Shown piece by piece: positions 50,760-52,545 of a stretch of DNA of 64,000 nucleotides (the first letter of the stretch is position 1; the number at the start of each line of letters is the position of its first letter). The DNA comes from Escherichia coli. GTDB taxonomy: Bacteria; Pseudomonadota; Gammaproteobacteria; Enterobacterales; Enterobacteriaceae. The translations under genes were made by a program, and so were the position numbers. Where the stretch lies: assembly GCF_003334405.1 (NCBI RefSeq), contig NZ_QOWM01000004.1. One strand, written 5' to 3'. The notes under the pieces were generated by a model that did no database searches, had not been told where the DNA came from, and saw only the letters and a list, made by a program, of their open reading frames with translations.

Positions 50760-50778
50760 AATAGCCCCCTGTTGAATA

Positions 50779-50798
50779 TACTGGTTATTTATACAGGT
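50779..50798 (-). promoter_or_regulatory. LexA (SOS) box in dinI promoter
   Basis: Reverse strand aCCTGTATAAATAACCAGta fits CTG-N10-CAG LexA consensus, ~25-40 nt upstream of dinI ATG. Confidence 0.8.
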
Positions 50799-50832
50799 AA
50801 AATAACCTAATGACAACAGGAAGCTACGATTT

Positions 50833-51879
50833 TTATTGTTTAACGGACCAGCGTACCGTTTCCCCGGCGAGGAATGGCACCAGCGTGTCATCAGTCAGTG
50901 CGATGCTTTCAGCAACCTGTTGCTCTTCACGTACCAGTTCGATGAATGTGTCGTTGACCGGCAACCCATAGAACTGCGGGCCGTTTACAGAACAGAATGC
51001 TTCAAAGTGCTGCAAAGCATTCATTTCTTCAAAGACGGTAGCGTAACTGCCCAGCGCGGTTGGGGCGTTGAAGCAGCCCGCGCAGCCGCAACTGCTCTCT
51101 TTGCGATGACGTGCATGTGGCGCAGAATCCGTACCGAGGAATACTCGATTAAAACCGCTGGCGACCAGTTCACGCAATGCCTGTTGGTGAATATTACGTT
51201 TGAGGATGGGTAGACAATACAGGTGCGGACGCACGCCTCCAACCAGCATATGGTTGCGGTTAAACATCAGATGCTGCGGAGTGATGGTGGCAGCCAGCCG
51301 TTCATTTCCGTCACGGACATAGTCGGCAGCATCTTTGGTGGTGATGTGCTCAAAAACGACTTTCAGCGCAGTCAGGCGCTGGCGCAGAGGTTCCATCACG
51401 CTTTCTATAAAGCGCGCTTCACGATCAAAAATGTCGATATCTGCATGTGTCACTTCACCATGCACCAGTAGCGGCATACCGATTTTTTCCATGCGCTCAA
51501 GTACCGGCATGATTGCGTCAATTGACGTCACGCCGTGGCTGGAGTTAGTGGTTGCGTTTGCCGGGTAAAGTTTTGCAGCGGTGAACACGCCTTCGTTAAA
51601 TCCGCGCTCCAGCTCATTAGGATCCAGCGAATCTGTTAAATAACAGGTCATCAATGGGGTGAAATCGTGCCCGGCAGGTACGGCGTCAAGAATACGCTGG
51701 CGATACGCCACGGCAGCCTCAACGGTGGTCACGGGCGGAGCCAGATTGGGCATTACGATAGCCCGTCCATAAATTTCGCTGGTATATGGCACGACAGTTT
51801 TTAACATGTCGCCATCGCGGAGGTGAAGGTGCCAGTCGTCTGGGCGGCGGATCTTTAATACCTGGGATGGTGCAGTCAT
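50833..51879 (-). CDS. pyrC: PyrC, dihydroorotase
   Basis: ORF track 348 aa [46 protein letters not shown]. Confidence 0.97.
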
Positions 51880-51928
51880 TAATCTCTATGCTCCGGCTGA
51901 AGGGATGTTTTTGCCGGACACAAAGGAT

Positions 51929-51948
51929 AAGCGGAAACGTTTTCCTTT
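51929..51948. promoter_or_regulatory. PurR box in pyrC upstream/leader region
   Basis: gcGGAAACGTTTTCCtt matches the core AAACGTTT of the PurR operator palindrome, ~50 nt upstream of pyrC ATG. Confidence 0.65.
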
Positions 51949-51957
51949 GCACGAAAA

Positions 51958-51984
51958 ATAAAGGGCGCGAATGCGCCCTCGTGA
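51958..51984 (-). terminator. Rho-independent terminator after yceB
   Basis: Reverse strand GGGCGCATTCGCGCCC hairpin followed by TTTATTTTT. Confidence 0.7.
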
Positions 51985-52545
51985 TTAATCAGTAAATGGA
52001 ATGACAATTTCGCCTGGCTTCACTTCAATGCCTTTCGCCAGTTTTTTCGCCATTGCTTCGCCCTGGCTGCCATCTTCGCGCAGGACGTAAGCAGGTTGCT
52101 GGTTAAAGTAATTGCGTAATGCCTGGTTCAAATAGGGAAGCAACGTTTGCATCACCGTTTGCATTTTTTCCGGTTGTACCGTCGCATCGACCACTTCCAT
52201 CTCTTTCAGGAAGATCGCACCTTTTTCTTTATCAAACACGGGCAGCGCTTTCAGCTTCAGTTTCATGGTCGCTTTCTGACTACCGAACAGGGAGTTCATG
52301 TCCAGATTGGCGTCTCCGGTTAGGGTAACCTTATTCGGCTCTTCGCGACCAATTTGGCTGGTCAGGTTTGTCAGAACAATATGGGCGTCAGCCACGCCGG
52401 GTAAACCGATATCTTTTGAGAAATTATTATGTTTCGCAAGCGACTGGTTAATTTCTTGTTCGGTGATGGTGTATTGGGTGAGTTGATTACAGCCAACGAG
52501 CAGGCCACTGACGATCAATGCAGCGGCAAATAAAAACTTGTTCAT
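51985..52545 (-). CDS. yceB: YceB, DUF1439 lipoprotein
   Basis: ORF track 51985..52746; start trimmed to MNKFLFAAALIVSGLLVGCNQLTQ (186 aa, lipobox LVGC). Confidence 0.92.
   Translation of the reverse strand: MNKFLFAAALIVSGLLVGCNQLTQYTITEQEINQSLAKHNNFSKDIGLPGVADAHIVLTNLTSQIGREEPNKVTLTGDANLDMNSLFGSQKATMKLKLKALPVFDKEKGAIFLKEMEVVDATVQPEKMQTVMQTLLPYLNQALRNYFNQQPAYVLREDGSQGEAMAKKLAKGIEVKPGEIVIPFTD

Follow-up and report, generated by a model that had tools for sequence, protein, structure and literature searches.

The E. coli pyrC-dinI junction is predicted to fold into a large hairpin on RNA that reads through from pyrC, in which a C-rich tract behind the pyrC stop codon pairs with the SD region of dinI and the complete LexA-controlled dinI promoter is enclosed in the loop. 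The structure and its conservation make it reasonably probable that this fold-back acts as an insulator, keeping read-through RNA translationally silent and leaving DinI dependent on LexA alone.

The window, i.e. the whole stretch of 64,000 nucleotides analysed, contains the known E. coli yceB / pyrC / dinI junction in the gene order grxB-yceB-pyrC-dinI-bssS (Table 1), and its positions 50400-52700 were found in 5426 of 5426 complete E. coli genomes. The whole set lies on the minus strand; for grxB, yceB, pyrC and dinI this is a point absent from the sequence-only reading. The intergenic spacers are 105 nt between yceB and pyrC and 73 nt between pyrC and dinI. A tight packing of regulatory signals around pyrC had been described, and the LexA box, the PurR box and the yceB terminator could indeed all be placed by coordinates. 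As these elements and the pyrC leader are textbook knowledge, that observation as written is ordinary; what appears to be new is the fold-back hairpin reading for dinI, the remaining elements being already known.

Table 1. Features of the yceB-pyrC-dinI region (positions in the window)
Feature	Position	Strand	Basis	Sequence or remark
yceB	52545..51985	-	RefSeq annotation	
yceB intrinsic terminator	51951..51980	-	terminator scan and fold	hairpin GAGGGCGC-ATTC-GCGCCCTT, then TATTTTT
PurR operator	51931..51946	-	PurR matrix	AGGAAAACGTTTCCGC; abuts pyrC -10 hexamer
pyrC -10 hexamer	51924..51929	-	from sequence	TATCCT; (nearly) invariant in 15 species
pyrC alternative start bases	51915..51917	-	sequence TTGTGTCCGG	C7, C8, G9, numbered from -10 hexamer
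pyrC leader	51880..51929	-	Rfam RF02372 and fold	hairpin CCGG...CCGG, hiding pyrC SD (GGAG 51894..51891) in longer transcripts
pyrC CDS	50833..51879	-	ORF list and RefSeq annotation	dihydroorotase, 348 aa
Whole fold-back hairpin	50761..50827	-	fold	14-bp outer stem
Fold-back hairpin 5' arm (anti-SD)	50814..50827	-	fold of read-through RNA; C-rich tract conserved at some 80 junctions	GUAGCUUCCUGUUG
dinI -35 hexamer	50811..50816	-	from sequence	TTGTCA; 17-nt spacer to -10
dinI LexA box	50779..50798	-	LexA matrix; CTGT-N9-CAG match	ACCTGTATAAATAACCAGTA
dinI -10 hexamer	50793..50788	-		TATAAA; inside LexA box
dinI predicted start site	about 50782..50780	-	inferred from -10 position	under LexA box
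Fold-back hairpin 3' arm	50761..50774	-	fold	CAACAGGGGGCUAU; holds dinI SD GGGGG (50769..50765)
dinI CDS	50514..50759	-	ORF list and RefSeq annotation	81 aa
dinI intrinsic terminator	50469..50494	-	terminator scan	GCCGGG-TCGC-CCCGGC, then TTTTTTATTTT

dinI is a well established member of the LexA-repressed SOS genes, with its box over the -10 hexamer and the start site. The box, previously estimated to lie about 40 nt beyond the pyrC stop codon, begins 34 nt past the last base of that codon and ends 19 nt ahead of the dinI ATG; the latter distance is also 19 nt in Salmonella, where dinI is induced 22.8-fold. LexA footprints in E. coli are reportedly to be found in Lewis et al. 1994. With a LexA matrix built from 15 other boxes, dinI excluded (training scores 13.3-26.2 bits), the dinI box scored 21.5 bits, against 11.5 for the runner-up in the 64 kb and 13.6 +/- 2.5 for the maxima of 50 shuffled windows, and is thus far beyond chance. 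It differs at 5 positions from the idealised palindromic 20-bp consensus TACTGTATATATATACAGTA (CTG-N10-CAG core), and for this reason a search with the idealised 20-mer allowing up to 3 mismatches gave no match. The promoter was likewise absent from the promoter scan list because its -10 hexamer ends in A. Its -35 hexamer, conserved as TTGTAA or TTGTCA, starts 16 nt past the pyrC stop codon. In K. pneumoniae, LexA was located at the dinI promoter by ChIP, the dinI start was mapped to a position overlapping the LexA box, and Northern blots revealed a dinI mRNA of ~350 nt whose presence depends on the gene's own promoter (PMC10907235). A dinI 'primary TSS' at 1121509(-) (PMC12987492) was set aside because neither version of the MG1655 coordinates places it at the LexA promoter. 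As in the LexA-repressed promoters of recA, sulA, umuDC and others, a box of the CTGT-N8-ACAG type covers the -10 hexamer and start of a damage-inducible gene; the box itself is no different, and only its place in the loop of a predicted read-through hairpin sets it apart.

The sequence-only reading had held that pyrC transcription must either end or run into the dinI promoter, and this premise stands. No terminator-like site was found by terminator scan in the spacer (50760..50832), and with the -35 hexamer so close behind the stop codon, RNA polymerase leaving pyrC would cross the LexA-controlled promoter unless halted by Rho or a roadblock. The first canonical terminator 3' of the pyrC promoter is that of dinI (fold -14.9 kcal/mol). 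A bidirectional function of this terminator was rejected from the sequence, since plus-strand RNA would end in A's. The Term-seq tables of Adams et al. 2021, covering three growth conditions, contain no 3' end for pyrC or dinI and none at MG1655 1,121,700-1,122,199; neither gene is present in the SMRT-Cappable-seq tables, and the TERMITe tables have no entry for the locus. The Term-seq tables do report a broad Rho-dependent termination region around pyrC-dinI, centred inside pyrC, with a Rho score of 4.16, which could be inflated if bicyclomycin induces dinI itself.

On the read-through RNA, the 5' arm of the predicted hairpin, which overlaps the -35 hexamer of dinI, starts 6 nt past the pyrC stop codon, and the 3' arm ends 1 nt short of the dinI ATG. 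Within the loop, of about 40 nt, lie the LexA box and the -35 and -10 hexamers, and in E. coli also an inner stem of 8 bp. The predicted folding energy is -26.7 kcal/mol (z -6.43; 0/200 shuffles), and the hairpin was retained when 146 nt of context were folded. The leader made from dinI's own promoter is predicted to be unstructured (-2.6 kcal/mol, z 0.09). As the start site lies between the two arms, own-promoter RNA lacks the 5' arm and cannot form the hairpin; the start mapped in K. pneumoniae also falls inside the loop. The calculated cost of opening the E. coli dinI SD is 15.4 kcal/mol on the read-through RNA versus 4.0 kcal/mol on the own-promoter RNA, and by this cost dinI ranks second of 45 neighbouring genes (background 4.6 +/- 3.2 kcal/mol).

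These features suggest how insulation might work. Some polymerases would pass from the terminator-less pyrC gene through the dinI promoter, and on the resulting RNA the 14-nt arm after the pyrC stop codon would pair with the dinI SD region in a hairpin enclosing the whole promoter. The hairpin would block binding of the 30S subunit, so that no DinI would be made from read-through RNA, and the untranslated dinI segment would probably become a substrate for Rho and decay. Once LexA is cleaved, transcription would start inside the loop and yield an RNA without the 5' arm, whose open leader could be translated. Synthesis of DinI would thereby be uncoupled from the pyrimidine- and purine-regulated transcription of pyrC. 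Against insulation it may be said that a translational block might be superfluous if LexA bound to its box already stops read-through before induction, and that the Term-seq and SMRT-Cappable-seq tables, as noted above, hold no entries for pyrC or dinI. In the openly accessible literature, which does not extend to the pyrC sequence papers of 1986-87, nothing relevant was found that connects dinI with pyrC, an SD, a stem-loop or read-through, and no description of a LexA box inside a read-through hairpin loop was found in the searchable literature.

About 80 junctions from across Enterobacterales retain the complementarity to the SD, among them those of lineages with a GGAGG in place of a GGGGG SD, and a covariance model detects 83 junctions. 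In nearly all of 89 distinct junctions, the metagenomic ones among them having been retrieved by a pattern that left both arms unconstrained, the predicted cost of opening the SD is 11-20 kcal/mol on read-through RNA versus 2-5 kcal/mol on own-promoter RNA. For most lineage representatives, dinucleotide-preserving shuffles of the upstream segment equalled the observed cost in 0-5 of 200 cases; L010 (57/200), L012 (19/200) and L014 (23/200), and also L196 and L028, were not significant in this test, which counts against insulation. Lineages with a GGAGG SD have partners of the CUUCC or CCUUC type, sometimes elsewhere in the promoter. Likewise, UUCGGGGGC goes with GCCUCCGAA, the partner changing along with the SD. 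The partner also shifts relative to the -35 hexamer and yet stays complementary. In 82 of 85 chimera comparisons, and in 42 of 42 for the GGAGG rows, a junction's own upstream segment did better than those taken from the other SD class.

Covariation depended on the alignment used. With a plain MAFFT alignment of 60 sequences, RNAalifold predicted essentially no helix, and covariation in the fixed MAFFT register was not significant (88/500 shuffles reached the score), pair counts being weakly above controls; both results speak against insulation. Because of these weak fixed-register counts, register-free energy tests and a model-fitted alignment were used. In the latter, which comprises 83 junctions and was fitted to the structure, there were 56 both-sides-changed cells (27.3 +/- 4.4 when shuffled), 35 extra pair types (25.8 +/- 2.0) and a covariation score of 0.165 (0.121 shuffled; slid controls 0.03-0.08), none of the three values being reached in 500 shuffles. 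The outer stem pairs vary between lineages and remain paired, and the stem core, C-run against G-run, is nearly invariant. Substitutions in the C-run comprise 18 C-to-U changes and 3 others, giving 24 G-U cells versus 1 A-C cell, an excess that fits pairing on the sense RNA. Since both arms have other tasks, in the -35 neighbourhood and as SD, pairing is not needed to explain part of the conservation. Taken together, the shuffle, chimera and covariation tests support the view that the pairing has been maintained in evolution.

A conceivable, if rather unlikely, alternative, and one compatible with insulation, is that the hairpin is a 3' end structure of the pyrC mRNA, either an unconventional terminator or an exonuclease barrier left after Rho termination further downstream, and that hiding of the SD is incidental. 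It is the sole strong structure after pyrC, with a G-C-rich base, and resembles intrinsic terminators and 3' stabilising stem-loops in having a strong G-C-based stem right after a coding sequence; Rho-terminated RNAs are, moreover, typically trimmed to stable stem-loops (PMC7815308). UUUUAUG follows the stem in Erwinia-like junctions, and more distant genera have a separate hairpin with a T-rich stretch at the equivalent place after pyrC. However, the loop of about 40 nt is far beyond the 3-8 nt usual for terminators, the E. coli stem is followed by UAUGCGAAUUG, a poor U tract, and with this loop and the tail UAUGCGAA the large hairpin was not classed as a terminator; nor is there a Term-seq 3' end at or near the dinI start in the three growth conditions. 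The 3' arm is also the SD of the next gene, and in a pure stabiliser there would be no need for the 3' arm to follow the changes of the SD from lineage to lineage. In Yersinia and Pectobacterium, the hairpins after pyrC fold strongly, fail a strict terminator scan and are terminator-like at most, and both genera retain a short anti-SD on top of them.

The sequence-only reading had suggested read-through coupling or transcriptional interference. In that case, pyrC transcription would modulate dinI through translated RNA, promoter occlusion or displacement of LexA. Its ground remains in part: the spacer has no terminator, the -35 hexamer follows pyrC closely, and the tandem pyrC-dinI layout is kept in 25 Enterobacterales genomes. 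The conserved anti-SD arm, however, speaks against productive coupling, as it would make read-through dinI RNA untranslatable; it points to insulation, probably the opposite of the outcome suggested. No effect on dinI was found in the searchable PurR and pyrimidine papers, dinI is unmentioned in a PurR regulon study (PMC3159470), and the dependence of the K. pneumoniae dinI mRNA on its own promoter also argues against coupling. We hold coupling or interference, taken as one proposal, to be improbable.

It is a little less probable still that the complementarity has no function in RNA, the C-rich tract being kept for a DNA-level or Rho-related reason (as part of a rut site or as promoter context) and the SD for translation. 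The scant variation of the stem core, the weak fixed-register covariation and the RNAalifold result would fit such an origin, and C-rich RNA past the stop codon would favour loading of Rho, for which a region is reported at the locus. A rut site, however, would need far more than five to six C residues. A different SD comes with a different partner, whose position relative to the -35 hexamer shifts with complementarity kept, the outer pairs vary without losing pairing, the extra pair types exceed those of 500/500 shuffles, and grxB has the same design with unrelated sequence.

Finally, translational coupling, in which a ribosome ending at the pyrC stop codon would open the 5' arm and briefly free the dinI SD, DinI then being made in proportion to PyrC translation, is very improbable: the distance from stop codon to 5' arm (6 nt in E. 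coli, mostly 5-12 nt in other species) is the geometry of known coupling hairpins, but the ribosomal helicase reaches only ~5 nt past a stop codon in the A site, so that the C-run/G-run core would stay paired, the distance from stop codon to C-run varies from 5 to 22 nt, which is not expected of a coupling device, and there is no obvious reason to tie an SOS modulator to pyrimidine synthesis.

Fold-back insulation, the reading we prefer, has a counterpart in the fold-back inhibition of outside transposase transcripts of IS10 and IS50, which was reportedly described by Davis, Simons & Kleckner 1985 and Schulz & Reznikoff 1991. In IS10 (Tn10) and IS50 (Tn5), an inverted repeat places its distal arm over the ribosome-binding site with the element's own promoter between the arms, and only read-in transcripts form the hairpin and stay untranslated; the predicted structure likens dinI to them. 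According to a recent preprint, the tnp initiation signals of both elements are sequestered in mRNA structures (bioRxiv 10.1101/2025.01.24.634351). dinI differs in being a chromosomal SOS gene whose neighbour, the housekeeping gene pyrC, is fixed and would supply the outside transcript, and in having a complete repressor-controlled promoter in the loop and no antisense RNA partner.

A matching hairpin of unrelated sequence was found ahead of grxB, at the mdtH>grxB junction 2.5 kb from pyrC>dinI, and from its modelled structure it is a second, independent instance of the dinI design. We tentatively propose, although we hold the generalisation to be somewhat doubtful, that compact, terminator-less tandem junctions of enterobacteria are translationally insulated by promoter-embedding anti-SD hairpins, which would restrict translation to self-initiated transcripts. 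The junctions pyrC>dinI and mdtH>grxB would then both exemplify a general chromosomal equivalent of the fold-back inhibition of transposons. The question addressed is how LexA can control an SOS gene when a constitutively transcribed biosynthetic gene ends 73 nt upstream of it and no terminator separates the two. If insulation holds, DinI, a modulator of RecA, would be strictly LexA-dependent despite constitutive pyrC transcription, and the hairpin would be a simple, portable insulator. Caution would then be due with operons called from RNA-seq only, since co-transcribed genes need not be co-expressed. Given the grxB example, such hairpins may form an overlooked class of element.

At the other end of pyrC, the yceB terminator and a PurR-like box had been placed within about 100 nt of the pyrC start, which agrees with the measured distances of 82-101 nt and 52-67 nt 5' of it, respectively. 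The terminator is a canonical one, with an 8-bp stem containing 6 G-C pairs, a 4-nt loop and the tail TATTTTTCGT (fold -16.7 kcal/mol, z -4.5), and a hairpin with a T run occurs at the equivalent position in most Enterobacteriaceae despite differing sequence. The Term-seq tables contain no 3' end at this terminator. With a good intrinsic terminator there, read-through from yceB into pyrC is less likely to be of consequence.

It is well established that pyrC is transcribed from a sigma-70 promoter, beside whose -10 hexamer lies a weak PurR operator; the sequence offered no confident assignment for the -35 hexamer. The PurR box is the top site of the PurR matrix in the window (15.9 bits), a score equalled in 6% of shuffled windows and below the 20-23.5 bits of the canonical pur operators used for training, so that the sequence by itself is no proof of a PurR operator. 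A search with the PurR consensus ACGCAAACGTTTGCGT (16-bp palindrome, central CG), allowing 3 mismatches, was not discriminating, with 2 sites found versus 1.1 expected. The block of PurR box, -10 hexamer and start site is almost invariant in 15 Enterobacteriaceae, in which the flanking spacer is unalignable. For direct repression of pyrC by PurR, PMC3159470 cites Choi & Zalkin 1990 and Wilson & Turnbough 1990. The pyrC box thus shares with the pur regulon operators a 16-bp palindrome with central CG conserved beside a promoter, and differs from them in its weaker match and in having been missed by in vivo PurR ChIP-chip (PMC3159470).

The pyrC leader gave a full-length match to the Rfam family RF02372 (PyrC_leader; 51929..51880, minus strand) with 68.7 bits at a gathering score of 50 (E 4e-10), and in 15 species both CCGG arms are invariant and the loop varies in length. 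The start bases match the published CTP/GTP-sensitive switch of start site, as summarised in PMC6524683, and it is well established that this switch decides whether the pyrC SD is hidden by the leader hairpin. The same locus would thus contain two SD sequences whose 5' partner is present or not depending on the start site: for pyrC the difference is two extra C residues, set by the CTP/GTP ratio, whereas for dinI it would be about 50 extra nucleotides, set by which promoter made the RNA.

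Between yceB and pyrC the spacer is 105 nt, and between pyrC and dinI 73 nt; the stretch 50400-52700 was found in 5426/5426 complete E. coli genomes. Its genes grxB, yceB, pyrC and dinI all lie on the minus strand. A LexA box, a PurR box and the yceB terminator had been placed around pyrC in a sequence-only reading, and all three were recovered at those sites, the LexA box 34 nt past the pyrC stop. Each is already known, and as a description the reading is accurate though ordinary; the one question it leaves, what becomes of pyrC transcription on reaching the dinI promoter, points to a conserved fold-back hairpin. 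The elements and their conservation are direct observations, and control of pyrC by PurR and start-site choice and of dinI by LexA is established elsewhere.

Features of the pyrC-dinI locus and of the grxB junction (window coordinates)
Feature	Position	Strand	Remarks
grxB hairpin	53374..53328	minus	12 bp on a perfect 11-bp inverted repeat; -21.9 kcal/mol, z -3.5
yceB	52545..51985	minus	
yceB terminator	51980..51951	minus	terminator scan and fold, -16.7 kcal/mol, z -4.5
PurR box AGGAAAACGTTTCCGC	51946..51931	minus	top PurR-like site of the window
pyrC	51879..50833	minus	
Hairpin 5′ arm GUAGCUUCCUGUUG	50827..50814	minus	fold of read-through RNA
dinI -35 hexamer TTGTCA	50816..50811	minus	begins 16 nt past the pyrC stop
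LexA box ACCTGTATAAATAACCAGTA	50798..50779	minus	begins 34 nt past the pyrC stop, with 19 nt left to the dinI ATG
Hairpin 3′ arm CAACAGGGGGCUAU	50774..50761	minus	fold of read-through RNA; includes dinI SD; ends one base before AUG
dinI	50759..50514	minus	

A terminator scan found no terminator-like site between the pyrC stop and dinI, and the -35 hexamer follows that stop by only 16 nt, which bears out the structural point that polymerases leaving pyrC meet no terminator before the dinI promoter. The read-through RNA folds into a single strong hairpin (-26.7 kcal/mol, z -6.43, equalled in 0 of 200 shuffles), whose loop holds the entire dinI promoter and LexA box and which is retained on folding with 146 nt of context. 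RNA from the dinI promoter itself (predicted start ~50782) does not include the 5′ arm and has practically no structure (-2.6 kcal/mol, z 0.09). The computed cost of exposing the dinI Shine-Dalgarno sequence (SD) is 15.4 kcal/mol in the read-through RNA versus 4.0 in the own-promoter RNA; it ranks second among 45 annotated gene starts treated identically in the surrounding 42 kb (background 4.6 +/- 3.2 kcal/mol). In our judgement, selection has probably acted on this hairpin as an RNA structure.

Retrieval by PyrC similarity alone gave 25 Enterobacterales genomes with dinI next after pyrC. A metagenome scan, whose pattern constrained just the core of the LexA box and the initial codons of dinI, added 120 loci, and the combined set comprised 137 pyrC-dinI junctions with 89 distinct spacers. 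Directly after the pyrC stop, nearly all Enterobacteriaceae have a C-rich tract and then CUGUUG, opposite ACAGGGGG. For nearly all of the distinct junctions, opening the SD costs 11-20 kcal/mol when the upstream segment is present and 2-5 when it is absent. When that segment was shuffled with dinucleotides preserved (200 trials per spacer), the observed cost was met in 0-5 of 200 shuffles for the E. coli spacer and for spacers of the Klebsiella, RIT691, L162 and L030 types (L numbers denote retrieved junctions). Erwinia-like and L190-type spacers, in which the SD reads GGAGG, gave the same result; the test was non-significant for the junctions L010, L012, L014, L196 and L028. SDs of the GGAGG class face GCUUCCG or GCCUUCGGA, and at junction L154 the paired sequences are GCCUCCGAA/UUCGGGGGC. 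Some lineages have the partner within the promoter spacer, not upstream of the -35 hexamer. Spacers of the more distant genera Yersinia, Pectobacterium and Brenneria are longer (105-117 nt) and carry a separate strong hairpin and T-rich stretch after pyrC, not called a terminator by the strict scan, plus a short anti-SD.

In chimeras that combined the downstream part of each lineage with the upstream parts of all others, the native upstream segment outperformed those from the opposite SD class in 82 of 85 cases, and in 42/42 for GGAGG-type SDs. Within the main group, 18 C-run substitutions were C-to-U and 3 were others, giving 24 G-U cells and 1 A-C cell; this asymmetry is what pairing within the sense RNA would produce, and constraint on the SD arm contributes to it too. 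RNAalifold on the plain MAFFT alignment predicted no structure, and in a fixed register paired cells were only slightly more frequent than in controls (67.0% versus 64.8%; covariation score reached in 88 of 500 shuffles). A covariance model built from the MAFFT alignment matched 83 junctions, Yersinia, Pectobacterium and Erwinia among them. In the alignment fitted to it, paired cells (70.0% versus 65.5 +/- 0.6 in shuffles), cells changed on both sides (56 versus 27.3 +/- 4.4), extra pair types (35 versus 25.8 +/- 2.0) and covariation score (0.165 versus 0.121; slid registers 0.03-0.08) were each reached in 0 of 500 shuffles. Such an alignment leans towards structure, and its covariation is therefore supporting, not decisive.

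These data suggest a mechanism in which part of the polymerases would exit pyrC and traverse the dinI promoter, and the read-through RNA would fold back and close the dinI SD to 30S subunits. The ~320 nt of untranslated RNA would then attract Rho and nucleases. Upon LexA cleavage, transcription would start in the loop and yield an open, translatable dinI leader. DinI output would therefore follow LexA alone and not pyrimidine or purine supply. We lean towards insulation of dinI translation from read-through as the main role of the conserved hairpin. Adams et al. (2021) reported a Rho-dependent termination region at MG1655 1122569(-) (Rho score 4.16, p 1.5e-11), corresponding to window ~51324 inside pyrC; its 800-nt downstream window takes in the spacer and dinI, and downstream coverage was 28% of upstream without bicyclomycin and 116% with it. 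This region is compatible with insulation but imprecise, and the effect could be inflated if bicyclomycin induces dinI.

The hairpin could also be the 3′ end of pyrC itself, as a terminator or exonuclease barrier, a role that may coexist with insulation. The UUUUAUG after the stem in Erwinia-like spacers speaks for it, but in E. coli the U tract after the stem is poor, the loop spans ~40 nt, and Adams et al. (2021) list no Term-seq 3′ end at the hairpin or elsewhere in yceB-pyrC-dinI. Translational coupling by a ribosome terminating at the pyrC stop is unlikely, as the distance from stop to C-run ranges from 5 to 22 nt and the stem core would sit past the reach of the ribosomal helicase. Incidental complementarity of a C-rich tract and an SD is hard to reconcile with partners that match the SD class and with a second example at grxB.

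That gene (GTG at 53326) begins 63 nt behind the mdtH stop, and its SD-opening cost, 19.0 versus 4.3 kcal/mol, is the highest of the 45 local genes. Its hairpin pairs GACUCCUCCAU with the grxB SD AUGGAGGAGUC. Other Enterobacteriaceae retain it, with compensatory changes in the outer pairs (UUUCUCCUCCAU/AUGGAGGAGAAA), and pyrC-dinI shows the same design. The junction of 5′ arm and loop reads CCATACT, similar to a sigma-S -10 element, and grxB's own transcripts may therefore start in the loop.

The closest known mechanism is the one by which IS10 and IS50 shield their transposase genes from transcription entering from outside. Transcripts that read into these elements carry both arms of an inverted repeat, hiding the ribosome-binding site, and own transcripts start between the arms. 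That mRNA structures sequester the tnp initiation signals is also stated, secondarily, in bioRxiv 10.1101/2025.01.24.634351. In the open-access literature searched, we found no paper tying dinI to pyrC read-through, an anti-SD or a stem-loop, and the K. pneumoniae dinI study (PMC10907235) does not mention pyrC.

The same principle operates on a smaller scale a kilobase upstream, in the pyrC leader (Rfam RF02372, 68.7 bits versus a threshold of 50), where CTP/GTP-dependent start-site choice sets whether a hairpin hides the SD (PMC6524683). The PurR box, the adjoining -10 TATCCT, the start-site bases and the CCGG...CCGGAG leader arms are nearly invariant across 15 Enterobacteriaceae, in which the remainder of the spacer is unalignable. 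The box is weak (15.9 bits versus 20-23.5 for canonical operators; equalled in 6% of shuffled windows). Direct repression of pyrC by PurR is established, and ChIP-chip failed to detect the site, one of only two known PurR sites so missed (PMC3159470), which fits a weak operator with a low matrix score.

The dinI LexA box scored 21.5 bits with a matrix of 15 other E. coli boxes (dinI excluded), against 11.5 for the runner-up in the 64-kb window and a mean of 13.6 +/- 2.5 for shuffled-window maxima. A perfect palindrome matching CTGT-N8-ACAG, CTGTATCTAATTACAG at 21776..21791, scored 10.7 bits, below that mean, and is therefore probably not a LexA site. Salmonella dinI has the identical 19-nt box spacing and 22.8-fold induction; for K. 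pneumoniae, LexA ChIP is reported, as is a mapped start that overlaps the box (PMC10907235). A primary dinI start under antibiotics given as MG1655 1121509 (-) (PMC12987492) was rejected as the LexA-promoter start, since in both MG1655 coordinate versions it is mismatched (window 50264 or 51042), landing a short way upstream of bssS or within pyrC. Processing of the 3′ region of the dinI mRNA in K. pneumoniae yields the Hfq-dependent sRNA DinR, which needs a Klebsiella-specific insert before the terminator (PMC10907235); the E. coli terminator lies ~20 nt past the dinI stop codon (dinI 3′ end, window 50469..50516) and thus leaves no room for such an insert. In four E. coli genomes (matches H2-H5), as at locus L209 of strain GZ04-0086, ISKox3 (ISL3 family) lies inside the LexA box and -10 hexamer with an 8-bp target duplication, TTATTTAT, equivalent to window 50785..50792, and cuts dinI off from both its -35 hexamer and pyrC. 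E. coli JX21CE35 carries IS1 just downstream of dinI.

Prophage DinI homologues (<=50% identical) also have a LexA box, 31-37 nt before the ATG. Taking 110 nt upstream, we observed a short anti-SD beside the -35 hexamer in 3 of 5 examined (phages SPN3UB, mEp460 and ST974-OXA48phi18.2; loci L204, L205 and L203), such as CCTCT directly 5′ of TTGACA and opposite AGAGGG, and no anti-SD in those of mEp237 and YYZ-2008; it lifts the SD-opening cost to 8-10 kcal/mol versus 1-4 without. At the E. coli ymdA-ymdB junction in the same 42-kb neighbourhood (retrieved locus L202:4616-4711), the ymdB SD cost is third highest locally, 12.1 kcal/mol when 76 nt of upstream RNA are included versus 4.7 for a short leader, and from these computed folds ymdB may be a further case of upstream-dependent SD masking.
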